A stretch of 64,000 nucleotides of DNA, from the NCBI GenBank assembly GCA_036010205.1, contig DATGOB010000251.1:844-64843 (forward strand), given 5' to 3'. This DNA comes from Promicromonospora sp. (GTDB lineage Bacteria; Actinomycetota; Actinomycetes; Actinomycetales; Cellulomonadaceae). The notes beneath the pieces are model-generated. The model was not told where the DNA came from. It was given only the letters and a program-made list of their open reading frames with translations, and ran no database searches. A program made the translations under genes and the position numbers. Of this stretch, positions 11,723-57,945 are shown piece by piece (position 1 is the first letter of the stretch; every line of letters begins with the position of its first letter).

Positions 11723-13797
11723 CCACGACGACCACGCCGCCCGCCACCACCGGCCCGCCGCCCGAGGCAGCCTCCCCGTGGCACGTCGACGGCACCCGGC
11801 TGACGTGGCGCGGGGGCGGCGAGACGCTCGTCGTCGAACCGTGGGGGGCCGACAGCGCGCGCGTCCGGTCGGCGCAGGGTGAGGTCGTCGACACCGACTG
11901 GGCCCTCCTGCCCGCCCCGGAGGCCGCCGACGCCCGCGTCGAGCTCGACGGCGGCGTCGCAACCCTGGTGAACGGGCGTCTGCGCGTCGTCCTCACCGCG
12001 CACGACCACTACCACTGGCAGGGCGGTCAGCGTCGCTTCCGCTGCCACGTCAGCTTCCAGGACGCCGACGGCCGCGAGCTCCTGGCCGAGCGCGAGTCCG
12101 GCGGCGCCCTCGCGCTGCGCGCCCGCCGGTACGACGCACACCCCGCGGGGGGCTGGCGGACGTCGCTCCTCCTCGAGAGCCCAGCGGACGAGAAGCTCGT
12201 CGGGATGGGCCTGTACCAGCAGGACCACATCGACCTCAAGGGCTGCACCCTCGAGCTCGCCCACCGCAACTCCCAGGCCAGCGTGCCGTTCGTCGTCTCC
12301 AGCGCCGGGTACGGGATGCTCTGGCACACGCCCGCCGTCGGACGCGCGACCTTCGGCCGCAACGGCACCGAGTGGACGGCCGAGGCCGCGCCCCAGATCG
12401 ACTACTGGGTCACGGCAGGCGACACCCCGGCGCAGATCAGCCGCGCGTACGCCGACGCCACCGGCCACGCCCCCGTGATGCCGGAGCGCGGGCTCGGCTA
12501 CTGGCAGTGCAAGCTGCGCTACTCCTCCCAGGAGGAGCTGCTCGAGGTCGCGCGCGAGCACCGGCGCCGCGACCTGCCGCTCGACGTCATCGTCGCCGAC
12601 TTCTTCCACTGGCCCCGGATGGGCGACTTCCGGTTCGACGACGAGTTCTGGCCCGACCCCGCCGCGATGGTCGCCGAGCTGCGCGACCTGGGCGTCGAGC
12701 TCATGGTCAGCGTCTGGCCCCAGGTGGCGCTCACGTCCGAGAACTTCGACGAGATGTCCCGCCAGGGCCTGCTCGTGGCCACCAACCAGGGCATCGACGT
12801 GCAGATGTGGTTCGAGGGCCCCAGCCGGTTCGTCGACACCACGAACCCCCGGGCGCGCGCCTACCTCTGGGACAAGCTCCGCGCCGGGTACGCGCGGCAC
12901 GGCATCCGGACCTTCTGGCTCGACGAGGCCGAGCCCGAGTTCGGCCAGTACGACTTCGGCGCCTACCGGTACGACGCCGGACCGGCGCTCGCGGTCACCA
13001 ACATCTACCCGCAGACGTTCTCCCGCGCCGTCTTCGAGGGTCAGCAGGGCGACGGCGAGACCGAGATCGTCAACCTCGTGCGGTGCGCCTGGGCGGGCAG
13101 CCAGCGCTACGGGGCGCTCCTGTGGTCCGGCGACATCCACTCCTCGTGGACGGCGATGCGCCGGCAGATCACCGCGGGCATCCACGTGGGCGCGGCGGGC
13201 GTGCCGTGGTTCACGACCGACATCGGCGGGTTCGGCGGCGGGCGGACGGACGACCCGGCGTTCCAGGAGCTGCTGGTGCGCTGGTTCCAGATGGGCGCGT
13301 TCATGCCGGTGATGCGCATGCACGGCGACCGGGCGCCCCAGGTGCCGGTCGTGGCGGCGGACGGCAGCCGCCGTCTGCCGTCCGGCTCGGGGAACGAGCT
13401 GTGGAGCTTCGGCCCGGAGAACTACGAGATCCTCGCCCGCTACGTGCGGCTCCGCGAGCGCCTGCGCGACTACACGCGCGACGTCATGCGGGCCGCGCAC
13501 GAGGACGGGCAGCCCGTGATGCGCGGGCTGTTCCACAACTTCCCGGACGACCCGCAGGCCTGGGACGTGGGGGACCAGTTCATGCACGGCCCGGACGTGC
13601 TGGTCGCGCCCGTGACCGAGCCGGGGGCGACGTCGCGCGCCGTCTACCTGCCGGAGGGGGCGCGCTGGACCGACCTGCACACGGGTGCCGTGCACGCGGG
13701 CGGGCAGTGGATCGAGGTAGACGCCCCGCGGCACCTCGTGCCGGTCTTCACGCGTGACGGCGCGTTGTCCGACCTGCAGGGTTACCTCGTGCCCTGA
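11719..13797 (+). CDS. GH31 glycoside hydrolase (alpha-xylosidase-like)
   Basis: [27 protein letters not shown] (nucleophile), WSGDI (acid/base), MRMHG. Confidence 0.9.
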
Positions 13798-13840
13798 ATA
13801 CCCCTTCTTCTCTCGCCACCGCCGACCACCAGGAGAACCC

Positions 13841-15391
13841 ATGGCCACGATCACCGCCGTCGTCAACCTCGACCTGCCCGGACCGACCATCTCCCGCCAC
13901 GTCTACGGACACTTCGCCGAGCACCTCGGACGCTGCATCTACGGCGGCTTCTGGGTCGGGGAGGACTCCGACGTGCCGAACGTGCGCGGCATCCGGCGCG
14001 ACGTCGTCGACGCGCTCCGCGCGATCGGCATCCCGAACCTGCGCTGGCCCGGCGGGTGCTTCGCCGACGACTACCACTGGGAGGACGGGATCGGGCCGCG
14101 CGACCAGCGGCCCCGCATGGTCAACTCGCACTGGGGCGACGTCGTCGAGGACAACTCGTTCGGCACCCACGAGTTCATGGACCTGTGCGAGCTGCTGGGC
14201 GCGGACGCCTACATCAGCGGCAACATCGGGTCGGGCTCGGTGCGCGAGATGAGCGACTGGATCGAGTACCTGACCCGGGCGGACGACTCGCCCATGGCGA
14301 CGCTGCGGCGGGCCAACGGCCGGGACGAGCCCTGGAAGGTGCCGTTCTGGGGGCTGGGCAACGAGGCGTGGGGCTGCGGCGGCAACCTGCGGGTCGAGCA
14401 GTTCGCGTCGCTCGCCCGCCAGTACGCCACGTACACCCGCGACCACGCCGACAACCGCGTGTACCGGATCGCCGCCGGCGCGCACGAGGACGACTACCAC
14501 TGGACCGAGACCCTGATGCGGTCCTTCGACCCGCTCGACCAGGACGACCGCCCGGCCACGCCGTTCCAGGCGGTGTCCCTGCACTACTACACGCGCACCG
14601 GGTCCTGGGCCGAGAAGGGCAGGGCGACCGAGTTCAGCACGGACGAGTGGTATCTCGCCCTGAGCCGCGCGTCCTGGATGGAGGAGCTGGTCGCCCGGCA
14701 CTCGACCGTCATGGACCGGTACGACCCGGCGAAGAAGGTCGGGCTCGTCGTCGACGAGTGGGGCACCTGGTGGGACGTCGAACCGGGCACCAACCCCGGC
14801 TTCCTGTACCAGCAGAACACGCTCCGCGACGCGCTCGTGGCTTCCGTGCACTTCGACGCGTTCCACCGCCACGCCGACCGGGTCGTCATGGCCAACATCG
14901 CCCAGACCGTCAACGTGCTGCAGGCGATGGTCCTCACCGATCCCGAGTCGGGCGCGCTCGTGCTCACGCCCACGTACCACGTGTTCGAGATGAACCGGGG
15001 GCACCACGACGCCGCCGCGCTGGACGTGCACCTCAAGGGCGCGCCGGAGAAGGAGGTCGGCGGGCGCACGCTGGGGCTCGTCTCGGCGTCGGCGTCGACC
15101 CGCGGGGACTCGGCGCTGGTGTCGCTGTCGAACCTCGACGCGGAGACCGCGCACACGGTGACCCTCGACCTCCGCGGGCGGGACGTGGCGGGTCACCGGG
15201 CGCGGGTCCTCACCTCGCCGGAGCTCGCGGCGCACAACACGGCGTCCGCACCCGAGACGGTCGCCCCGCGCGACCACGACGGCGTCCGGCTCCGCGACGG
15301 GCGCCTGGAGATCGACCTGCCGGCCCATTCGTACGTGACGCTGGAGCTGACCCTGTCCCCGGCGCCAAGCCAACCGCTTGTGCCGAGGTAG
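13841..15391 (+). CDS. Alpha-N-arabinofuranosidase, GH51 (AbfA/Abf2-like)
   Basis: [43 protein letters not shown]. The stop TAG is supplied by the first repeat unit of array A. Confidence 0.95.
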
Positions 15392-15503
15392 TCACTTGGC
15401 GAGGTAGTCATCTGGCGAGGTAGTCACTGGGCGAGGTAGTCACGTAGTGCGCGTTGCGCGACTACCTCGCCAGGCGACTACCTCGCCACGTGACTACCTC
15501 GGC
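15382..15503. repeat. Repeat array A: 4 direct + 3 inverted 16-bp-period units (palindromic)
   Basis: CGAGGTAGTCA at 15384, 15400, 15416, 15432; GACTACCTCG at 15460, 15476, 15492. Confidence 0.95.
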
Positions 15504-15543
15504 CCGGTCGGGGCGGGCGCCTGCCCGGGCGGCGTGGTCGAGG

Positions 15544-16014
15544 TCAGGCGCGCGGGCAGACCTTGACGTTGTTCGAGTAGAGGATGCCTTCGTCGCCGAC
15601 GTAGTTCTCGTCCTGCCACGCGAGGCTCACCTTCGCGCGAATGCGTACCTGCTCAGAGGACTTGCAGGCCCACGAGGGGGTGCGTGCGACGTCCTGGACC
15701 GGCTCCCAGGGCTCGTTGTAGGGGTAGGACTCCGCGACGGTCCACCAGATACCGTCCCGCAGGATCTCGAGGTACACCGCGTCGACCCGGACGTCGTAGT
15801 CGCCGCCGCCCTCGCTGTCGGTCACCCGCGCGTGGGCGTTGAACACCCCGGGCTTCGTCATCTCGACGTTGGCGCAGCGGATGACCTCCTCACCCACGCA
15901 GGTGTGCGCGATCTGCTGGGCTGCCGCCGCCGGCGAGGCGATGAGCATGCTCGCGCCCAGCGCGATGCCGAAGGCGGCCGTCAGGACGCGCTTGGTCTGT
16001 CCGTTCTTTCGCAT
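15544..16014 (-). CDS. Small secreted hypothetical protein with 4 Cys, flanked by arrays A and B
   Basis: Sec-type signal MRKNGQTKRVLTAAFGIALGASMLIASPAAAA; mature part has 4 Cys; codon usage appears less GC-biased than neighbours. Confidence 0.75.
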   Translation of the reverse strand: MRKNGQTKRVLTAAFGIALGASMLIASPAAAAQQIAHTCVGEEVIRCANVEMTKPGVFNAHARVTDSEGGGDYDVRVDAVYLEILRDGIWWTVAESYPYNEPWEPVQDVARTPSWACKSSEQVRIRAKVSLAWQDENYVGDEGILYSNNVKVCPRA

Positions 16015-16076
16015 GACGGCAGTCAAACTCGGCGTGGCGGCGCGAGGTTGCAGGATCCTGCAGATCGCCCGGTCGG

Positions 16077-16122
16077 CTGACTACCTCGCCAACTGACTAC
16101 CTCGCCAACTGACTACCTCGGC
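16077..16122. repeat. Repeat array B: 3 units, half element
   Basis: TGACTACCTCG at 16078, 16094, 16110; the last unit ends CCTCGGC as in arrays A and C. Confidence 0.95.
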
Positions 16123-16130
16123 GAGGGGGT

Positions 16131-16145
16131 GGACAACGTTTGTCA
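16131..16145. promoter_or_regulatory. Putative LacI operator upstream of lacI
   Basis: GGACAACGTTTGTCA, sharing the AACGTT core with the sites at 17206 and 17247. Confidence 0.55.
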
Positions 16146-16151
16146 TAGCCT

Positions 16152-17168
16152 GTGCGGATGGAGTTGAGTCGCAGGCCGCCGGGGTTGGTCGACGTCGCGG
16201 CGAAGGCGGGGGTCAGCGTCTCGACGGTGTCGCGGGTACTCACCGGGCGGACGCCGGTCAGCGAGAAGCTGCGCACGAAGGTGCAGGCGGCGGTCGACGA
16301 GCTCGGGTACCGGCCGAACGCCGCCGCGCAGACCCTTGTCAGCGGCAGGCGGTCGGCGATCGGGGTGTTCGCCCGCAACACGGCGCGCTTCGGGTACGCG
16401 GCGACCCTGCAGGGCATCGAGGAGGCCGCCCGTGCCGCCGGCTACGTCGTGATGATCACCGTGGTCGAGTCCGGCCGGCCGGACGACATCGCCCGCGCCG
16501 TGGACATGACGCTCTCCCAGGCGCTCGCCGGTGCGATCGTCATCGAGTTCGACGCGGTCGGCGTCGCCACGCTCGAGGCGTTGCCCGACGTCGTCCCCGT
16601 GGTCGCCGCCGCGGGCGCCCGGCGTGAGCCGGGGCCCCGGCCGCACGCGTTCCTGGACGACGAGGCGGGCGGGCGGGCCGCCACCGAGTACCTGCTCGGC
16701 CTCGGCCACCGGACGGTGCACCACATCGCGATCCCGGCCACCCGGGAGCGCAGCGGGCGCGAGTGGGGGTGGCGCACCGCGCTCGAGGCGGCGGGCGCCC
16801 CGGTCCCGGACGTGGTGTCCGCGGAGTACTCGCCGACGTCGGGGTACGACGCCGCGCAGCGGCTGCTCGAGCAGGACGGTGTGACCGCGATCCTCTGCGG
16901 CAACGACGAGCTCGCGATCGGCGCCGCCCGCGCGCTGTCGGAGCGAGGGCTGCGGATCCCGCAGGACGTCGCCGTCGTCGGGTTCGACGACCAGCCGTTC
17001 GCCGAGATGTGGGTGCCCGCGCTGACGACCGTGGCGCAGGACTTCACCGATCTCGGACGCCGCACCTTCGGCCTGCTGGAGGAGTGGCTGCGCGCCGGCG
17101 AGCGCCCGGCGGACTCCGCGGTGCTGCCGTCGCTCGTGGTCCGGGGGAGCACCGCCGCCCGGGAGTGA
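16152..17168 (+). CDS. LacI family transcriptional regulator
   Basis: LVDVAAKAGVSVSTVSRVL HTH; PQDVAVVGFDD...PALTTV. Confidence 0.95.
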   Translation: MRMELSRRPPGLVDVAAKAGVSVSTVSRVLTGRTPVSEKLRTKVQAAVDELGYRPNAAAQTLVSGRRSAIGVFARNTARFGYAATLQGIEEAARAAGYVVMITVVESGRPDDIARAVDMTLSQALAGAIVIEFDAVGVATLEALPDVVPVVAAAGARREPGPRPHAFLDDEAGGRAATEYLLGLGHRTVHHIAIPATRERSGREWGWRTALEAAGAPVPDVVSAEYSPTSGYDAAQRLLEQDGVTAILCGNDELAIGAARALSERGLRIPQDVAVVGFDDQPFAEMWVPALTTVAQDFTDLGRRTFGLLEEWLRAGERPADSAVLPSLVVRGSTAARE

Positions 17169-50147: not shown

Positions 50148-50744
50148 TCAGCCGTAGATCAGGTAGGTCCCCGCCTTGCCCGGCTCGACGAGGGCGAACC
50201 GCCTGGTCAGCCCGCTGTTCTCGAGCAGCCCGACCTGCTGGGTGAACTGCTCGTTGGTCACGAACACGGTGCGCTCGACGCCCCAGTCGTCGGCGAACCA
50301 CGTGCGGAGCGTGTCCAGCAGGCGCCGGTCGAGCCCGTCGGCCGTGCGTGACGTCCGGACCCAGAAGTACACGACGGCCTGCACGTCTCCCCACGCCTCG
50401 TCGGCGAGCGGCGTCACCGCCGAGCGTGCGAGGAACGCCGCGGTGGTCGGGAAGACGTAGACGCAGCCGAGGCTGCGCGGGTCGGCGGGGTCGGGACTCG
50501 CCGGGTCGAGCACCGTGTAGGTGAAGGCGTGCCCGGCGACGTGCCGCTCCTCGAGCCCGGCGAGGTCGGCGCGGTTGGCCTCGACCGTGAAGTCGTCCTC
50601 CGGCCAGGCCGACTGCTCCCAGAGGCGCAGGTCGGCGCGCGCCTCCATGACGGCGTCGTGGTCGCGTGCCGCGTCGTCGGCCGTGATCGGGCGCAGCGCG
50701 AGCTCGTCGGTGCGCGGCATGCGCGCCGGTTCGTGCAGGATCAT
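50148..50744 (-). CDS. GNAT-fold (RimJ/L-like) protein
   Basis: LRPITADDAARDHDAV, FTYTVLDP, LGCVYVFP, VYFWVR. Confidence 0.7.
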   Translation of the reverse strand: MILHEPARMPRTDELALRPITADDAARDHDAVMEARADLRLWEQSAWPEDDFTVEANRADLAGLEERHVAGHAFTYTVLDPASPDPADPRSLGCVYVFPTTAAFLARSAVTPLADEAWGDVQAVVYFWVRTSRTADGLDRRLLDTLRTWFADDWGVERTVFVTNEQFTQQVGLLENSGLTRRFALVEPGKAGTYLIYG

Positions 50745-50877
50745 CGGGGGCTCCCTCTCGTCCCTCGCACCCTAGGCGGGGCCGGGTCCGGACCTCGACG
50801 GGTTTTCGCGGGTACCGATGAGTTCCGGTCGCCCGCCCGGTCGGCACGGGCAGACACCAACCCTGGAGGAACCCCTG

Positions 50878-51535
50878 ATGCCTCGTCCCACCCCGGCCCG
50901 CGTACGAGACGCGATCGTGGAGCACACCCGTCGGTTCGCGGAGGCGGCGTCGGCCGCCGGACCGCAGGCTCCCGTGCCGACCGCCCCGGCCTGGACCGTC
51001 GCCGACCTCGTCACGCACGTCGGCGGCACGCAGCACTGGACCGCCGAGATCATGGAGCGACGCGTCGCCGACTTCGCCGACCTGCCCACGGAGAGCCCGG
51101 AGGCCCCCGCGGACCCCGGTGCGTGGCCCGGCTGGCTCGACGAGTCCGCGCGGCGCGTGACCACGGCCTTCGCCGACGACGCGCTCGATGCCCCCGTGCT
51201 CAACGCCGCGGGCGACGACCGCCAGGGCAGCCTGTTCTGGCTGGTCAACGTCCTCAACGAAGCGGTGGCGCGCCGGCGCGCTCCGGGGCACGGGGCAGGC
51301 GCTGCAGTGGCGGGCCGACGACACCGGCGACGCGTGGCACGTCGAGCGACGCCCGGAGGGCGCGGTGTGGCGGGCCGGGACCGGCCCGGCGGACGTGACG
51401 GTGACCGGACCGGCCGGCCCGCTCCTGCTCGCCCTCACCCGGCGCCTGCCGCTCGAGGACGCCGGCCTCCGGGTGGACGGCGACGCCGCGCTGGTGCGGC
51501 ACTGGCTCGACCACACGGCGCACGTCGCGGACTAG
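50878..51535 (+). pseudogene. Mycothiol-dependent maleylpyruvate isomerase (MDMPI/DinB-like) family, frameshifted/internally deleted
   Basis: Frame 1 gives VPTAPAWTVADLVTHVG...FWLVNVLNEAV; the C-terminal domain (ALRGTGQALQW...DVTVTG...LLLALTRR) continues in another frame from about 51270. Confidence 0.7.
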
Positions 51536-52734
51536 CGCGGGCCCACGCCCCGGTCGCTCCACGCCGTGCCGAACGCCGCCCACACCATCGGGGAGAACGC
51601 GGCCTCGCCCGTGCGCTCCCAGGCGTCGGCCTGCTCGCGCTGCCACGCGTTGAGCGCCGCGACCGGGTCGGCGGCCTCGTGCGCCGCGTCGACGGCGACG
51701 ACCGCCCGGGCGAAGGCGTCGATGCCCGCGACGCCCGCGACCACCTCCAGCCCGGTGTCCGTCGGCAGCGTCCAGCGGGTCGCGGTGACGTGCTCCGCGC
51801 CGCGCGCGGTGAAGGCGGCCACCAGGCCGGTCGGGTCGGCGTAGGCGGTGTCGGCGCCGGACGCGCAGCCGACGAGCGCGACACGGGCGGGCGCCGTCCA
51901 CCCGTCGAGCGCGATGTCAGAGGCCAGCAGCGGGCGGTGCACGCCGTCCACGAGCGGGGCACGGCCTGCGGCCTCCGGCCCGTCGGTGAGGTGCAGGCCG
52001 GTGCCCAGGGCGTACGCGCCCGCGGTCACGTGCCCGACGTACAGGAAGCGGGCGGCGCCGGTGAGGTGCTCGCGAAGCTGCGCGCGGCTCGTGCGGGGGT
52101 GGACGGGGGCCTCGGCCGGTGCGCCCCGCAGCCGGTCGCCGTGCCGCGCGAGCACGGCCTCGACCAGGGGCTCCGCGCGGCGCAGCACCGGTTCGAGGCC
52201 GGCGACGCCGCCGGGCACGACGGGGTCGACGGTCGCGACGACGGGTCCGCCGGGCCGCGCGGGCGACGCGACCCGGGCGGGCGACCGGCGGATCGACGCA
52301 GGCAGCAGCACCGACACGTCGCAGCGGTGCACCAGGCGCTCGGCGTCCTCGATGCGCAGGGCCTCCCACGGCACGGCGGCCAGAGCGGGCGAGGCCTGGA
52401 CACGGACGTGCGGGCGCAGGCCCTGCGCGAACCGTTCCTCGAGCTCGGCTCCCAGCCGCGGCGGGACGAGCGCCGCGGTGAGCGCGCCGCTGAGCGCCGT
52501 CTCCTGCCCGACGTCGCCGAGCACCGCCCAGGAGCGCACCAGCGCGTCGCGCACGGACTCGCCGTCCAGGGGGCGCGGAGCCGCCCGGCGCCACGCGTCG
52601 AGCGCCGGCAGGGGCGGCGGGACGCCCCACAGCCGGGGCTCGTCGAGCGCGTCCTGCCAGCGCCACGTCACCCACAGGCCGCCCTCGGCGGTGTCGACGT
52701 ACTTGACCTGCACCGTCGGGTCCTGGCCGGTCAC
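51532..52734 (-). CDS. CHAT-domain (caspase-like) cysteine protease, stand-alone
   Basis: LAAVPWEAL, FLYVGH (His235, codon 52030-52032), VALVGCASG (Cys290, codon 51865-51867), VTATRWTL, WAAF; the GTG start overlaps the TPR stop (GTGA). Confidence 0.88.
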   Translation of the reverse strand: MTGQDPTVQVKYVDTAEGGLWVTWRWQDALDEPRLWGVPPPLPALDAWRRAAPRPLDGESVRDALVRSWAVLGDVGQETALSGALTAALVPPRLGAELEERFAQGLRPHVRVQASPALAAVPWEALRIEDAERLVHRCDVSVLLPASIRRSPARVASPARPGGPVVATVDPVVPGGVAGLEPVLRRAEPLVEAVLARHGDRLRGAPAEAPVHPRTSRAQLREHLTGAARFLYVGHVTAGAYALGTGLHLTDGPEAAGRAPLVDGVHRPLLASDIALDGWTAPARVALVGCASGADTAYADPTGLVAAFTARGAEHVTATRWTLPTDTGLEVVAGVAGIDAFARAVVAVDAAHEAADPVAALNAWQREQADAWERTGEAAFSPMVWAAFGTAWSDRGVGPR

Positions 52735-54179
52735 CACGCGTCGACCACCTCCCGGCCTCGGACGGCGACGCCGTACCGCTCCTGCGCGGCGTCCAGGGCC
52801 CACGCGACGGCGCTGCGCCCGTCCGGGCGCGTCCGGACGCGCGGCGGGACGGCGAGCAGGTCGGCACCGGTGTGCGGCTCGGCGACCGCCGGGTCGAGGG
52901 TGGCGCTCGCGGCGACGTGCTCCAGGAGGTCGAGCACCTCGTCCTCGCGGCCGGCGACCGTGAGCGTCCGCAGCGCGACGTCGAGGATCCGGGCCGCCTC
53001 GGCCGCCCACGCCTCGCGCAGCTCGCCGGGCCGCAGGCCGTAGCGGACGGCGTCGGCGGCGAGGGCGCAGGGCACCGCGATATCGACCGCGCGGTCATGT
53101 TCGGGGGTGCCCGCGGTGCCCGTGCGGAGCGCCGCGTTGTGCGCCGCGACCGCGCGGCGCACGTCGACGCGTACCCGCTCGGGCAGCGTCGTGGCGAGCC
53201 CCCTGGCGCGGTCGTGCGCGGCCAGCGCCTCCTCGCCACGGCCCGCCTCGTCGAGCGCGAGGCCGAGCACCGCCCACGCCTCGGCCTCGCTCGCGGGGTC
53301 GCCCACGGCGCGGCACCGCTCGACGGCCTCGCGGGCGGCCCCGACCGCGCCGTCGAGGTCGCCGCGCAGGCGCAGCACCTCGCCGCGGACGGCCACGACG
53401 GCTGCCGCGCCGCGCCGGTCGCCGACCGACAGGTACGCGTGCTCGGCGTCGTCGAGGTGGCGCTCCGCGGCGTCCGCGTCGCCCTGCGCGAGCGCGAGGG
53501 AGGCGGCATGGCGCGCGCGCTCGGCGCGCCGGGAGGCGTCGAGCGGCTGCGTGGCGGCGATCGCCTCGGCGGCGTGGGCGGGGGCGGCGGCGTCGGCCCC
53601 GGCGAGCCGCCGCAGCAGGGCGAGCCGGTCGAGGCAGAGCGGCACCAGGCGCGGCTCGTGCCCGGACGCCAGGGCGAGGGCGGCGCGGACGTCGTCCTCG
53701 GCGCCGTCCAGGTCGCCCGACTGCTGCCGCACGGTCGCGCGCCCGAGGTGCACGTGCACGCGTGCCTCCCACCACATCGGGTGGCCGAGCGGGTCGTCGA
53801 GCCGCAGCGCGGTGTCGTAGTCGGTGGTGGCGGCGGCCGCGTCGCCGGTCAGGAGGTGCTGGTCGGCACGGGCGGTGAGCAGCACCACGGTCTCGAAGGC
53901 GACGCGCGGGTCGCGGACCCGGGCCGCCCGCCGCGCCGCCTTCAGCCCCTCGGCGATGTGCTCGCGTGCGGCGGCGTGGTCGCCGCGGTCGGCCGCGGCC
54001 TGGGACAGGACGTGCCGCACCCGGGCCCGCAGGTACAGCGCGTCGGGATGGGTGCCCAGCCACCACCGGCCCACGACGGCCAGCAGCTGCTCGGCGTACG
54101 GTTCGGCGGCGGTGTGCCCGCCCCGGTCGTACGCCTGGGCCATCTGCGCGCCGAGGGCGTTGACGTCGGGGAGCGTCAC
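52731..54179 (-). CDS. TPR-repeat protein (482 aa)
   Basis: Ala-rich helical repeats, e.g. EAWAVLGLALDEAGRGEEALAAHDRA and HVHLGRATVRQQSGDLDGAEDDVRAAL; GTG 54179 overlaps the upstream stop. Confidence 0.8.
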   Translation of the reverse strand: MTLPDVNALGAQMAQAYDRGGHTAAEPYAEQLLAVVGRWWLGTHPDALYLRARVRHVLSQAAADRGDHAAAREHIAEGLKAARRAARVRDPRVAFETVVLLTARADQHLLTGDAAAATTDYDTALRLDDPLGHPMWWEARVHVHLGRATVRQQSGDLDGAEDDVRAALALASGHEPRLVPLCLDRLALLRRLAGADAAAPAHAAEAIAATQPLDASRRAERARHAASLALAQGDADAAERHLDDAEHAYLSVGDRRGAAAVVAVRGEVLRLRGDLDGAVGAAREAVERCRAVGDPASEAEAWAVLGLALDEAGRGEEALAAHDRARGLATTLPERVRVDVRRAVAAHNAALRTGTAGTPEHDRAVDIAVPCALAADAVRYGLRPGELREAWAAEAARILDVALRTLTVAGREDEVLDLLEHVAASATLDPAVAEPHTGADLLAVPPRVRTRPDGRSAVAWALDAAQERYGVAVRGREVVDAW

Positions 54180-55024
54180 GGGCCCACCGCCCGCGCGATC
54201 TCGACGAGGCGGTGCGGGTCGACGTCGGGCACCGGCGTCAGGCCCGGCACCTCGAGCCGGAACCGGGGTCGCGCGGCCAGGAGGGCCGGTGGCGCGGGAA
54301 CCGTGCCGGACCACGCGTCCCCGGCCCGGCGGAGCGGGACGACCGTCTCGCCCGCGACGGCCCGCAGCGTGACGCGCGGCGGCGCGCCGACCACGGGAGC
54401 CGTCGGCACCGTGACGGCGAGCGTCAGGTCGGCGCCGCCGGCCAGGTCCACCCGCCACGCGACCTGCCCGAGGGGGTCGACCACCCCCTGCGGCACCGCA
54501 CCCGGGTCGACCGGGTCGACGCCATCGAGCACCGGGGCACCGCGCGGCCCGGCCGCGCCCGCCGCGAGGGCGTACTCCTCCGGCCGGGGGCCGGGGGAGC
54601 CCAGCGGGTCGGACGCCGCGAGGTCGACGCCGTGGTCGGCGGCGAGCTCGCGGACCTGCTCGTCGAGCGGGCCGCCGACCGGACCGGGCCCGAGGGCCGC
54701 GAGCTCGCGCAGCGCGCGGACCACCGCCTCGTCGTCGTCGGTGACCCCGTCGAGGGCGGCCAGCGCAAGAGCCCGCCGCGCGGTGAGGACCCGCGGGTCG
54801 AGCGGCGGCACGTCGGCGACCCGCGACGCGGGCCACCAGGCCGCGCGCCACGCGTCGAGCGCAGCCCGGCGGGCGGGGACGAGCACGTCCTCGCCCGCGA
54901 CGTCCAGCCACCCCGCCGCACGTGCCTCGTCCCACACGTCCGCGCCCTGCTCGCCGGTGCCGAGGTCCCACCACAGGAGCGCGCCCGCGCCCTCGAGGAC
55001 GGCGGTGCGCCAGGCCGGCGTCAA
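54176..55024 (-). CDS. Hypothetical protein (282 aa) in the TPR-CHAT operon
   Basis: TTG 55024 overlaps the upstream TGA (TTGA); LDAWRAAWWPAS...PPLDPRVL and EEYALAAG motifs; no family recognised. Confidence 0.7.
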   Translation of the reverse strand: MTPAWRTAVLEGAGALLWWDLGTGEQGADVWDEARAAGWLDVAGEDVLVPARRAALDAWRAAWWPASRVADVPPLDPRVLTARRALALAALDGVTDDDEAVVRALRELAALGPGPVGGPLDEQVRELAADHGVDLAASDPLGSPGPRPEEYALAAGAAGPRGAPVLDGVDPVDPGAVPQGVVDPLGQVAWRVDLAGGADLTLAVTVPTAPVVGAPPRVTLRAVAGETVVPLRRAGDAWSGTVPAPPALLAARPRFRLEVPGLTPVPDVDPHRLVEIARAVGP

Positions 55025-56241
55025 GCCGCACCACCCTGGGCCAGCATCGCCTTGACCTGGTCGCGCCGGTCGAGCACCACGGACCGCATCGCGCCGTCGA
55101 GCAGGTCCCACACCGCCTCGGCGGGCAGGTCGCGGCCGCGCAGCTCGCGCCCGTGCACGCGGGCCCAGAGCCGGCGCAGGAACGCCTCGCGCACGCCGTC
55201 GGCCGGGCCGGTGCCGTCGGGCAGGCGCAGCGCCTTGCGGACGAAGGCCTCGCGCTCCCAGCGGGCGGCGAGCCGGCGGGCGGCGTCGGTGGTGCCGTCG
55301 AGCCGGGCCGCGGCCGCACCGGCCACCATGACCGCCCGGTCAGGTTCGGCGGCGAGCTGCCAGGGCCGCGCGCTGCGCGCCGCCTCGGCCGTCACCACGT
55401 CGCGCAGTGCGCCCGCCCCGTCGAGCCCCAGGGCGGTCACCGTGCCGAAGAGCCGCTCCAGGATCGACCGGTCGAACGGTGGCGGCAGCGCGGACTTCGA
55501 CGCCCGCGTGCCGACCTCGGGCGGTCGCACCGTCTCGTGCGCGCTCAGCCCCGCGGCCCGGGCGCGGCCGGGGGAGCGCAGCGCAGTCCCCGCCGCGGTC
55601 CCGTCCCCCGCCGCGACGACGTGGTCGAGCGCGTCCCGGCCGTCGGTCGCGCAGGTGTCCAGCAGCCGTGTCAGCCGGTCCGTCGTGCCCTCCTCGTCGG
55701 GCGGCCCCGGCGCGACGGCCCCGCGGTCGGCGTCCGTCCACGCCGCGTCGACCGCCCGGCGCACCTCGTCCGCGACGTCGGGGAGCGTGAGGTAGGCGCG
55801 CAGGTCGGCGGCCGTGACGCGGCCGGCGTCGTGCACGTCCTCGACCTCCTTGCCCGCGAGCGCCGCGGCGTCGGGCCCGGGTGCGCCGTGGCGGTGGGCG
55901 AGCTCGTAGGCGCGCTGGAAGTACAGGTCCTGCGGGTGCCCGTCGGTGATGCGCCGGGCGCGGCGCTCGCGCTTGAGGTGCACGAACCAGGCGGCGGTGG
56001 CCACGAGGTCGTCCCGGGCGGCGAGGATGCGGGCGCGCAGCTCCCGTGCGGCGTCGTCGTCGAGCAGGGCGCGCCCCAGGTGCGGGTGCTGCGCGGGGCG
56101 GACCACGAGCGGGTCGAGGACGAGCTTCACGGTGCGGGCGAGCGGCAGGCCCGCCGCGTTGCTCAGGGGCGCGACGCCGTCGCCGAGCTCGCGCCAGACC
56201 TGGGCGAGGACGCGCGTGCGCGCCGTGGTCTGCGCGGTCAC
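55021..56241 (-). CDS. Hypothetical helical protein (406 aa), first gene of the TPR-CHAT operon
   Basis: Clean ORF with GC-biased codon use; motifs KLVLDPLVVRP, DLYFQRAYELA, PPPFDRSILERLF, RWEREAF, LRRLWARVHGRE. Confidence 0.75.
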   Translation of the reverse strand: MTAQTTARTRVLAQVWRELGDGVAPLSNAAGLPLARTVKLVLDPLVVRPAQHPHLGRALLDDDAARELRARILAARDDLVATAAWFVHLKRERRARRITDGHPQDLYFQRAYELAHRHGAPGPDAAALAGKEVEDVHDAGRVTAADLRAYLTLPDVADEVRRAVDAAWTDADRGAVAPGPPDEEGTTDRLTRLLDTCATDGRDALDHVVAAGDGTAAGTALRSPGRARAAGLSAHETVRPPEVGTRASKSALPPPFDRSILERLFGTVTALGLDGAGALRDVVTAEAARSARPWQLAAEPDRAVMVAGAAAARLDGTTDAARRLAARWEREAFVRKALRLPDGTGPADGVREAFLRRLWARVHGRELRGRDLPAEAVWDLLDGAMRSVVLDRRDQVKAMLAQGGAA

Positions 56242-56322
56242 ACCGCAACCCTACCGGCGGGCGGGCGGCCTGCCTCGGGGACCTGTGACCGGGAGGGGGC
56301 GGCCGGCGCTACCGTGCGGCGC

Positions 56323-56925
56323 ATGAGGACGGACATCCCCCCGAGCCGCGCCGCGCTGGCGATCGCGCGGATGCGCGACTTCGGCGCACACCAGGCGGCC
56401 TACCCGGTCAACCGGTCGCTCGACCGGTCGCTCGGTCTCGTCGGCGTGGTGCTCGTCGTGGCACCGGTGCCGTTCGCGTGGGTGGCGTACACGGAGTCGC
56501 CCTGGGGCGACGGGGTGGGCAGCGTCGGCGGGATGATCGCGTCGGGGCTGGCCGCGCTGGTGTTCGGCGCCCTCGCGGTCGTCATCGGCATCCCGGCCCT
56601 GCTGGCGGTGTTCAGCCACCCGCACGCGACGGTGCACCTCTTCGAGCGCGGTGCGATCGCGATCCGGCACCGCGGGGGGAGCTGGTCCTGGACGTACGAG
56701 AACGCGACGGTCCGGTACGTGCTGTGGCACGAGCCCTGGGAGGGTGAGTCCCGGCCGCGCAGGCAGCTCTGGGTCACCTTCCGCGACGGCGAGACGATCT
56801 GCTTCGACGGCCTCGGCGACGCCGACCGCGCGGTGCTGCCCCACCTGTCGGTGGCGCTGGGCGGCAGCCGCGAGCCGGAGGACGTCGGGACCCTGCGCGG
56901 CAGCGACGTGCCGGCACCGTTCTGA
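56323..56925 (+). CDS. Hypothetical membrane protein (2 TM + soluble domain)
   Basis: ATG 56323; two hydrophobic helices followed by a beta-rich PH-like tail. Confidence 0.65.
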   Translation: MRTDIPPSRAALAIARMRDFGAHQAAYPVNRSLDRSLGLVGVVLVVAPVPFAWVAYTESPWGDGVGSVGGMIASGLAALVFGALAVVIGIPALLAVFSHPHATVHLFERGAIAIRHRGGSWSWTYENATVRYVLWHEPWEGESRPRRQLWVTFRDGETICFDGLGDADRAVLPHLSVALGGSREPEDVGTLRGSDVPAPF

Positions 56926-56934
56926 GGAGGACAC

Positions 56935-57945
56935 ATGACGGATCTGCCACGCGTCCTCCGTCCGGAGGACCTCGGCCTGCCTCGCGAGCCCGCGGTCAAC
57001 GCGCGCGGCGTGCTGGGCACGCTCGGCACCGTGGCCGCGCTGGTCCTCGTCGGCGTCCTGGTCGGCTCGGTCCTCACCCTCCGTGACGTGGAGCCGGGGT
57101 ACGCGGTCGCGGTCGGCGAGCGGGCCGGGCGCGAGGTGGTCGTGGTCCCGTCCGAGCACGGCGCCGGTGCGTCCTTCGTGGCCGCCTACGACACCGCGAC
57201 GGGCGAACGCCTGTGGCGGCACCGCACGGCCCGTGCACCCTGGCCGCTGGCCGCCGGCACGGAGCACGTGCTCCTCCGGGACGACGACCAGCTCGTCGTG
57301 CTCGACGTGGCCGACGGCTCGGTCGTGGCCGAGGGCGACGGCATCCCCGGGCTCGACCTGCCCCACGGCGAGCTCAACTTCCGGGAGGACGGCGACGCCG
57401 CCGACGCGACCGAGGGCGTCGTCTACGTGTCGGTGCACGACGGGTTCCCCGAGCAGCGCCCCGACCTGGTGCGCGCCGTGCCCGTGGACGGCCCGCCGGT
57501 CGCGGCGCCCCTGACGGGCCGGCAGGCCGAGCGCTGGTCCTGCTACGTCACGTCCGCCGGCGCCCAGCGGCCGGACGGCGCCCAGGTCGTCGACGGCGTC
57601 GTCCGCGAGGGGGCGGAGGGCGTCGTCGTGCCCGACGTGTGCGACCGTGACCCGATGCGCGCCGTGAGCGACGAGCTCGCGCCGGGCTCGGGCGTCGTCG
57701 CGACCATGACGCCAGGGCGGGACGCGTACGGGCGGTCCGAGCTCGTGCTCACCGCAGCGGACGGGGCCGCGCTGCACCGCGTCGACGACGTGTCCGACGT
57801 CGCCGCGGCCCGCACCACGCCGTCGGGCGGCGCCGTCCTGCTGCTGCGGACGCAGCGGTCCGTGCTGTTCGGCCTCACCACCCGGTACGACGCCGTGCTC
57901 CTGCTGGTCTCGCCGGGCGGCGAGGTGAGGGAGGTCGGGCTGTGA
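56935..57945 (+). CDS. Membrane-anchored PQQ-like beta-propeller protein (PA2928-like)
   Basis: AGGAGG RBS; N-terminal TM; AAYDTATGERLW and VVLDVADGSVV propeller blades. Confidence 0.6.
   Translation: MTDLPRVLRPEDLGLPREPAVNARGVLGTLGTVAALVLVGVLVGSVLTLRDVEPGYAVAVGERAGREVVVVPSEHGAGASFVAAYDTATGERLWRHRTARAPWPLAAGTEHVLLRDDDQLVVLDVADGSVVAEGDGIPGLDLPHGELNFREDGDAADATEGVVYVSVHDGFPEQRPDLVRAVPVDGPPVAAPLTGRQAERWSCYVTSAGAQRPDGAQVVDGVVREGAEGVVVPDVCDRDPMRAVSDELAPGSGVVATMTPGRDAYGRSELVLTAADGAALHRVDDVSDVAAARTTPSGGAVLLLRTQRSVLFGLTTRYDAVLLLVSPGGEVREVGL

Follow-up and report, generated by a model that had tools for sequence, protein, structure and literature searches.

We describe a set of four overlapping genes, termed A, B, C and D, on the minus strand at 51532-56241 of a 64,000-nucleotide stretch of DNA from Promicromonospora sp. 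(contig DATGOB010000251.1), hereafter the window. Judging from its sequence, the set appears to be a hitherto undescribed, CRISPR-independent TPR-CHAT module of a split kind, in which a tetratricopeptide repeat (TPR) protein and a caspase-like CHAT protease are encoded apart and are joined by two novel partner proteins and by membrane-protein neighbours; a full-text literature search did not find a description of this gene set. Separase and caspases have their bacterial relatives in the TPR-CHAT proteases, of which Craspase is, to our knowledge, the sole bacterial example that is well understood. We propose that the module would work as a CRISPR-free, chromosomal proteolytic switch, an outline that we hold, taken as a whole, with a confidence just under even.

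The operon starts with gene A (55021-56241, GTG start, 406 amino acids (aa)) and continues with gene B (54176-55024, TTG start, 282 aa), the TPR gene C (52731-54179, GTG start, 482 aa) and the CHAT gene D (51532-52734, GTG start, 400 aa), the A-B, B-C and C-D junctions being the stop/start overlaps TTGA, GTGA and GTGA. High-GC DNA yields many long spurious open reading frames (ORFs), and because ORF length alone is no proof in a GC-rich genome, the GC content was checked by codon position. Third-position GC (GC3) is 0.94-0.99 in the claimed frame of all four genes, with the second position lowest, and its phase switches at every junction, as four frames require. Translation and GC3 periodicity thus agree with the four minus-strand ORFs, the coordinates, the lengths and the overlaps given in a preliminary description of this DNA. 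The TTG start of B is backed by an identical 282-aa product on record (P0241) and by the aligned N-termini of its homologs. None of the four proteins contains a transmembrane (TM) segment, and Rfam, tRNA and tmRNA scans of the window were empty. The operon region (52000-56000) has 80% GC as compared to ~73% for the window, with GC3 equal to that of the neighbouring genes; the excess comes from codon positions 1 and 2, that is, from Ala/Arg/Gly-rich proteins, and is not obviously a sign of foreign origin. A foreign origin read from the 80% GC was dropped on account of this equal GC3, and so was extreme lysine depletion as a trait of the module, as the flanking genes are equally Lys-poor.

To place the operon among other genomes, a scan with the alignment of D was run on one genome per species (185,579 species) and returned 236 loci, a lower bound that depends on two peptide patterns. 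Eighty of these 236 loci were retrieved with 10-kb flanks; the comparisons cover 82 loci, 75 of them not cut by a contig end, and gene order was assessed by tblastn and then by hidden Markov model (HMM) scans of all six-frame ORFs. Among the 75 untruncated loci, 71 have the genes in the order A>B>C>D>, in Micrococcales, Pseudonocardiales, Glycomycetales, Streptomyces and Nocardia, which bears out the earlier expectation that the four genes co-occur elsewhere. The C-D pair, coupled in translation, is found in every one of the 82 loci, and in ~95% of the untruncated ones A and B go with it; four loci (L013, L025, L039 and L054) carry C-D without A-B. Overlaps of 1-7 nucleotides (nt) between stop and start recur in independent annotations from five orders, and four genes have been called independently in Promicromonospora thailandica, Saccharothrix, Streptomyces zhaozhouensis, Jiangella, Microbacterium, Glycomyces and Saccharopolyspora. 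All-versus-all clustering of every ORF in the 82 loci gave no other family common to more than 20 loci once the shadow ORFs of the module were excluded, indicating that the module is self-contained and that its flanks are unrelated chromosomal contexts. The operon is therefore real and self-contained, and it recurs far beyond chance. It forms a unit of four to six genes in at least about 200 actinobacterial species, carriers including Nocardia farcinica, Saccharopolyspora, Microbacterium and some Streptomyces. Most actinobacteria lack the module, which hence lies outside core physiology.

These comparisons also bear on an artefactual origin, in which the TPR/CHAT split would be a sequencing frameshift or the genes would be shadow ORFs of a GC-rich genome. 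Beyond the abundance of long spurious ORFs in high-GC DNA nothing speaks for it. The GC3 periodicity selects exactly the claimed frames, independent annotations call four genes, and the D homologs are all 380-460 aa long. C and D, described earlier as separate genes, are indeed distinct, overlapping ORFs in different frames in 82 of 82 loci, C always ending in a conserved Trp followed by the stop codon. We regard an artefact as extremely improbable.

D matches the Pfam CHAT family PF12770 with 47.6 bits (cut-off 24, E = 1.9e-12) over residues 81-388, corresponding to positions 3-284 of the 289 of the model, and PF12770 stands in the precomputed annotation of nearly all D homologs. The protein is a bare CHAT domain preceded by ~80 conserved N-terminal residues. 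Its homologs are likewise stand-alone CHAT proteins from many actinobacterial genera, none of them longer than ~490 aa. By identity the window stands nearest to Promicromonospora citrea, D being 94% identical to its counterpart in L004. The catalytic residues reported as intact in the preliminary description, His235 (codon 52030-52032, minus strand, in the context 'YVGHV') and Cys290 (codon 51865-51867, minus strand, in 'VGCAS', an xCxSG context), are invariant in 85 of 85 D homologs. D is thus, by these signatures, a predicted clan CD caspase-like cysteine protease with its active-site residues intact. When the D-family HMM was run against solved structures, no CHAT structure was found by sequence.

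C matches TPR_2 at 32.4 bits (cut-off 27), remains below the cut-offs of TPR_12 (29.9 vs 30.1) and TPR_MalT (28.4 vs 45), and has homologs with faint to weak TPR matches. Across 84 homologs, the positions conserved at 95% or more are found mainly in residues 373-482, a C-terminal domain encoded at nt 52734-53063 of the minus strand that includes the last residue, W482. The TPR region (~residues 1-370) is variable and ranges from 0 to ~700 aa, and C as a whole measures from 271 aa, an essentially TPR-free form, to 835 aa. A conserved C-terminus next to a variable TPR region suggests that C is sensor-like. Four Streptomyces loci have gene C in duplicate. Two consecutive TPR genes stand between B and D in Streptomyces zhaozhouensis, S. 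sedi, S. chisholmiae and Streptomyces sp. NBRC 109706 (L040, L043, L047, L051, L084), the pair of S. zhaozhouensis consisting of 835 aa and 574 aa within a five-gene forward operon.

A and B have no match in Pfam, NCBIfam or PADLOC, and a profile search of all PDB sequences found no relative of either. Since they are carried by 71 of 75 loci, they are dedicated partners of the module. The AlphaFold2 model of A (predicted local distance difference test (pLDDT) 91.7) is all-alpha with ~20 helices and had no Foldseek match in PDB or BFVD at E<=0.001. The A family is small, 1.84 billion proteins yielding 190 clusters at 50% identity, and none of the domain fusions among these 190 matching clusters is informative; the longer matches carry low-complexity inserts or N-terminal extensions that resemble mis-called starts, without a Pfam domain. 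A is the best-conserved partner, with 88 positions conserved at 95% or more, of which 20 are Arg and none is His or Cys, and with a conserved extended segment at residues 221-259. It is basic (isoelectric point (pI) 8.8 here, family median 8.7). B is acidic (pI 4.5, family median 4.5, median charge ~-21), and its AlphaFold2 model (pLDDT 90.4, predicted template modelling score 0.83) shows an N-terminal alpha/beta domain (residues 1-130) connected by a disordered linker to a beta-sandwich at the C-terminus (residues 164-258). Foldseek against PDB gave no match for B at E<=0.001, only weak immunoglobulin (Ig)-like or carbohydrate-binding module (CBM)-like resemblance for the C-domain. The folds of A and B are thus predicted with confidence yet have no match. 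No gasdermin fold was found beside the protease, the B model being weakly Ig-like or CBM-like and A all-alpha and unmatched.

The linker of B contains an SsrA-like motif (54554-54583, minus strand; P148-E-E-Y-A-L-A-A-G-A157), whose YALAA is encoded at 54560-54574 and which gives a precise experimental handle on the module. Residues 149-157 are the sole stretch of the B model with a pLDDT below 50, and the linker around the motif is hypervariable in length and sequence. Within the motif, L153, A154 and A155 are kept in 77 of 77 B homologs and A152 in 74; residue 151 is aromatic in 73, and Gly is found at position 156 in 64 and at position 157 in 61 of the 77. Only 20 positions of B are conserved at 95% or more, and four of these follow one another here, A152-L153-A154-A155. 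The resulting profile, P-x-R-x-[D/E/G]-[F/W/Y]-A-L-A-A-G-G, matches in its part R-x-[D/E/G]-[F/W/Y]-A-L-A-A the end of the actinobacterial SsrA tag. Cleavage can expose a ClpXP C-degron of this sort: RseA 1-108 ends in VAA after RseP, and the N-terminal fragment of LexA ends in VAA after autocleavage.

A previous study has demonstrated that YALAA, the pentapeptide with which the SsrA tag of M. smegmatis ends, is sufficient to turn mScarlet into a Clp substrate in that organism (PMC9067928). In E. coli, ClpX recognises mainly the terminal LAA-COO-/Ala-Ala-COO-, and Ala-Ala C-degrons also serve other proteins of the cell (PMC7652416, citing Flynn 2003 and Neher 2006 for the latter). Among CHAT proteases, Csx29 cuts Csx30 after a non-polar P1 residue, between AVGM and KKDK (bioRxiv 10.1101/2022.08.17.504292). 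The motif of B is a candidate for both a CHAT cleavage site and a cryptic ClpXP C-degron. By analogy with the SsrA tag, the internal copy would be inert and would become a degron if cut exactly after A155, and the small Gly-Gly that follows suits the P1'-P2' position. B appears a likelier substrate than A, because the invariant SsrA-like motif lies in its sole disordered loop.

Based on these features, we propose the following sequence of events. C would dock on D via its conserved C-terminal domain and hold the protease off, this domain standing at the position at which TPR and CHAT meet in fused enzymes. The variable TPR region of C would bind a signal, possibly relayed by the membrane proteins F and G/E introduced below. 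Once activated, D would cut B in the disordered loop, at or next to the bond between [F/W/Y]-A-L-A-A and G-G. The new ...YALAA-COOH end would mimic an SsrA tag and ClpXP would destroy the N-terminal part of B, rendering the step irreversible. Acidic B may act as an inhibitor or anti-factor of basic A with its 20 invariant Arg, and A, once freed, could act on a polyanionic target, e.g. nucleic acid or membrane. Pairing of A with B is consistent with the 4-nt overlap of their genes and with their opposite charges (median pI 8.7 vs 4.5). If true, this would be a cut-then-destroy switch under the control of a fast-evolving TPR sensor, which is encoded by a gene of its own and connected to membrane proteins. 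The specific claim that CHAT unmasks a built-in tmRNA-tag mimic, so that one cut leads to removal of the B inhibitor by ClpXP and to release of Arg-rich A, is a tentative one that we judge rather doubtful.

Several observations weigh against this mechanism. The tripeptide LAA is common in Ala/Leu-rich proteins such as those of the module and has six copies in B alone, so the case rests on invariance and disorder rather than on the tripeptide. We know of no precedent for Ala at P1 among CHAT proteases. The [FWY]ALAA motif was not found in the alternative partner genes, in the C-D-only loci and the Rhodococcus plasmid variant described below, so that the protease must have other substrates or modes there. 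No tmRNA gene was found in the window, and the tag sequence of the host was not seen in it. A has no detectable relatives or fusions that would indicate an activity, and the beta-propeller assignment of F falls below the Pfam cut-off.

Furthermore, a peptide bound by TPR or an element of structure would be equally good readings of the motif. In one such alternative, the ALAA-GG of B would dock in the TPR groove of C or plug D as a pseudosubstrate, in the way of securin with separase, making B an adaptor or inhibitor; the true substrate would then be A, one of the membrane partners F/G/E or some other protein, either foreign or of the host. Short peptides in extended form are the typical ligands of TPR domains, and an invariant, disordered motif suits a docking peptide as well as a cleavage site. 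From the C-D-only loci it is evident that B is dispensable for the protease to work, and the conserved extended segment 221-259 of A could be presented to the protease. On the other hand, no part of the module is less conserved than the TPR region of C, which fits an invariant peptide poorly, and under a docking role the exact match to the SsrA pentapeptide, with the aromatic residue at -5 as well as the Arg and acidic residues before it, would be a coincidence. We consider both parts of this alternative, the docking role of the motif and the other substrate, improbable, to a degree that leaves them worth keeping in mind.

In the cut-then-destroy mechanism the signal may be relayed by membrane proteins, and genes for such proteins lie divergently upstream of A. 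In the window these are gene E (56323-56925, plus strand, 200 aa), with TM segments at 35-58 and 64-102 and a beta-rich C-terminal domain, and gene F (56935-57945, plus strand, 336 aa), with a TM segment at 23-53. The divergent A/E intergenic sequence (56242-56322, 81 bp) presumably holds the promoters for both arms; a sigma-70 promoter/terminator consensus scan of it was empty, a result that is uninformative at 73-80% GC. F has a weak PQQ_2/BamB match (22 bits, below the cut-off), which recurs in a Streptomyces homolog, and is a probable extracytoplasmic beta-propeller with most of the protein outside. E has orthologs in L006 and L007 alone (Promicromonospora, Isoptericola) and no Pfam match. 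In this lineage G, a second membrane protein found at other loci, is absent, and E fills the place between A and F. G is a protein of ~260 aa with an internally duplicated C-terminal domain, no Pfam match and two N-terminal TM helices as read from the sequence. E was considered as a divergent G and rejected, as homology is undetectable (hhalign probability 0.1%) despite the shared topology. By the positive-inside rule, the C-terminal domains of E and G are predicted to be cytoplasmic.

An F homolog adjoins 52 and G adjoins 53 of the 71 A-B-C-D loci, so that F and/or G stand beside 62 of the 71 modules (~87%), mostly divergent upstream of A. With 42 loci, G<F<A>B>C>D> is the most frequent architecture, and neither F nor G is detectable near nine modules. 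The preliminary description had missed these membrane partners, as well as the conserved C-terminus and variable TPR region of C and the SsrA-like motif of B.

The membrane neighbours raise the possibility of envelope signalling or housekeeping, in which F and G/E would sense a cue from the envelope or the environment and the cytoplasmic TPR-CHAT pair would transduce it by regulated proteolysis, in the manner of anti-sigma cascades like those of RseA or DdvA, with A as a regulator. Their presence beside 62 of 71 modules, a topology that puts the C-domains of G/E in the cytoplasm and most of F outside, and the ordinary chromosomal neighbourhoods are all in line with it. So are the cleavage-exposed Ala-Ala ends of RseA and LexA. 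Ala-Ala C-degrons are used by cellular proteins (PMC7652416), and DdvA, a TPR-CHAT protein, controls an extracytoplasmic function (ECF) sigma factor (PMC11506125). However, neither Pfam nor the fold search gives A a DNA-binding, sigma or anti-sigma domain, the module is missing from most actinobacteria, and nine modules have no detectable F or G nearby. Envelope signalling is in our view possible, on the unlikely side.

A second functional alternative is anti-phage defence or abortive infection, in which the TPR protein would recognise a phage protein, CHAT would be unleashed, and A or G/E would kill or arrest the cell. This role had been put forward in the preliminary description, and the present analysis gives it no support. 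None of A, B, C and D matches a PADLOC-DB v2.0.0 family at E<=1, and no relatives of A were found in phage records or IMG/VR contigs. The eight sampled neighbourhoods, that of the window among them, are metabolic or regulatory, with no integrases, transposases, restriction-modification or defence genes, and synteny is kept between the P. citrea-like and P. thailandica genomes. The separate expectation of independence from CRISPR is upheld, as there are no cas genes in the eight annotated neighbourhoods and no repeat array, nor any spaced direct repeats, in the 40-64 kb part of the window.

Other observations fit a defence role. The distribution is patchy (236 loci in 185,579 species genomes), the TPR region is variable, and the partner genes are swapped in some loci. 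The copy of a second Promicromonospora species is only 48% identical to that of the window and thus more distant than the Microbacterium copies (53-57%). The genome of Actinophytocola sp. NPDC049390 contains two paralogous loci (L054, L060), one a full G<A>B>C>D> and the other C-D only, the latter with a G-like gene downstream and a different upstream gene. Distant CHAT relatives occur on Rhodococcus and Streptomyces plasmids, an Abi_2 fragment lies beside the Jiangella locus, and the known CHAT systems (Craspase, SAVED-CHAT and the type IV Thoeris-like caspase) are defence systems. Envelope signalling suits the membrane partners equally well, and we take defence to be an unlikely but conceivable function.

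Individual loci depart from the common arrangement in several ways. In L039, one of the C-D-only loci, C has just 271 aa, i.e. the conserved C-terminal domain alone, and an ORF ~2.7 kb upstream has a C-terminus that by eye resembles a histidine-kinase ATPase domain. In two Glycomyces loci, L070 (Glycomyces sp. NRRL B-16210) and L068 (Glycomyces paridis), gene A is broken up and gives two matches to its HMM, with ~1.7 kb of additional DNA between A and B in L070, which may reflect insertion into or decay of the module. In L087 (Jiangella sp. DSM 45060), D is followed on the same strand by three Pfam-less genes (13738-17113); the last two match the F model, and the Abi_2 fragment lies just beyond. 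A complete G..A-B-C-D set with a D of ~38% identity is found in L086, the 2.66-Mb 'plasmid 2' record of Nocardia farcinica NCTC11134, which is probably a piece of the chromosome; the species is of clinical relevance and tractable.

The Rhodococcus variant (L085) lies on the mobilizable, 128.8-kb plasmid p4 of Rhodococcus sp. DN22. Its CHAT protein, a distant relative with ~31% identity, has as neighbours a C-like TPR protein of 1078 aa, encoded convergently, and two hypothetical proteins that are unrelated, and the genes nearby include plasmid-transfer genes (TraM-recognition-domain), two NYN-domain genes, a sigma-like helix-turn-helix gene and a CHAP-domain gene. The two hypothetical proteins upstream of CHAT were considered as A and B and rejected, homology being undetectable; the N-terminus of the second bears a faint likeness to the 'GAGxLxWW' motif of B that is not significant.

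DNA near-identical to 51532-57945 (0.76-0.98 of sampled words) was found in soil, compost, manure, sludge and wastewater metagenomes. The matching public runs (X1-X20) are metagenome contigs, and the wastewater 'RNA-Seq' libraries cover genes and spacers alike and thus cannot show co-transcription of A-D.

Next to the operon in the window, a gene of the MDMPI_N/DinB type (50818-51535, plus strand; mycothiol maleylpyruvate isomerase-like) is convergent with D and looks disrupted. Compared to the 263-aa P. thailandica ortholog, residues 1-130 align at 50878-51267 and residues 175-263 at 51272-51532 in another frame, with ~44 codons missing between the two parts, indicating either a pseudogene or an assembly error. 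Between this gene and a TetR gene lies a 198-aa ORF (50148-50744, minus strand) without a Pfam match; the P. thailandica locus (L001), while syntenic in other respects, lacks this ORF.

If the proposed mechanism is true, it would show that bacteria couple a specific endoprotease to the general degradation machinery, a clan CD protease passing its product on to an AAA+ protease in a new form of hand-over. The module, with two novel protein folds, would represent a new class of actinobacterial signalling or immune module and could yield a compact, programmable protease-degron switch; if related to defence, it would add a family missing from current defence catalogues.

Finally, we compared the module with known systems. 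The SAVED-CHAT protease of the type III-B CRISPR/CBASS-associated cascade and the type IV Thoeris protease are, like D, stand-alone CHAT or caspase-like proteases; they are switched by a signal and act on the products of neighbouring genes or broadly. Unlike them, D has no SAVED or nucleotide-sensor domain and no PADLOC match, and a cyclase or TIR gene is not conserved nearby. The EACC1-caspase 'System 4' combines a caspase-superfamily protease with a small TM protein gene near the membrane (Kaur et al. 2020, PMC7159879). It resembles the module in pairing a protease with a TM gene and in its enrichment in multicellular and actinobacterial lineages. The caspase there is fused at its C-terminus to effector or sensor domains of variable kind and has the TM gene directly upstream in the same orientation, whereas the protease of the module is bare, most of its TM genes are divergent, and A, B and C are additional.

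The internal [F/W/Y]ALAA of B equals the terminal pentapeptide of SsrA, and the module shares with RseA and LexA the idea that one cut exposes an Ala-Ala end and hands a fragment to ClpXP. We know of no caspase-like protease that generates a ClpXP C-degron. DdvA is comparable as a TPR-CHAT protease that is linked to the membrane and transduces a signal, the proposal there being self-cleavage in a flexible linker followed by further proteolysis that releases a cytoplasmic factor. It differs in that TPR and CHAT are fused in a single membrane protein, its CHAT domain is periplasmic, its active site is incomplete and its partner is an ECF sigma factor; in the module, CHAT and TPR proteins are separate, TM-free and cytoplasmic, and a sigma factor is not conserved nearby.

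Craspase (type III-E, with Cas7-11, Csx29, Csx30/Csx31 and RpoE) likewise combines TPR with a His/Cys-dyad CHAT protease and has adjacent genes for dedicated partners without known domains. Its protease is held off allosterically and cuts one partner, Csx30, at the non-polar P1 residue mentioned above. Csx30 combines a large alpha-helical part with a beta-rich part, resembling A plus B together; in a comparison with the PDB library neither A nor B had a structure or sequence match, the presence of Csx30/Csx31 chains in that library not being confirmed. Unlike Craspase, the module has no Cas7-11, CRISPR array or conserved sigma factor in the 82 loci, its TPR and CHAT parts are separate polypeptides, and the membrane partners F/G/E are present. 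Separase, craspase and DdvA are structurally akin (PMC11506125). Separase differs from the module as a single eukaryotic polypeptide that cuts after Arg at P1, is tied to the cell cycle and has no detectable sequence relation to D. Nevertheless, separase-securin also unites helical repeats and a caspase-like, CHAT-type protease that is held inactive by a pseudosubstrate inhibitor, and it would be the closest analogy for the working of the module if B is an inhibitor.

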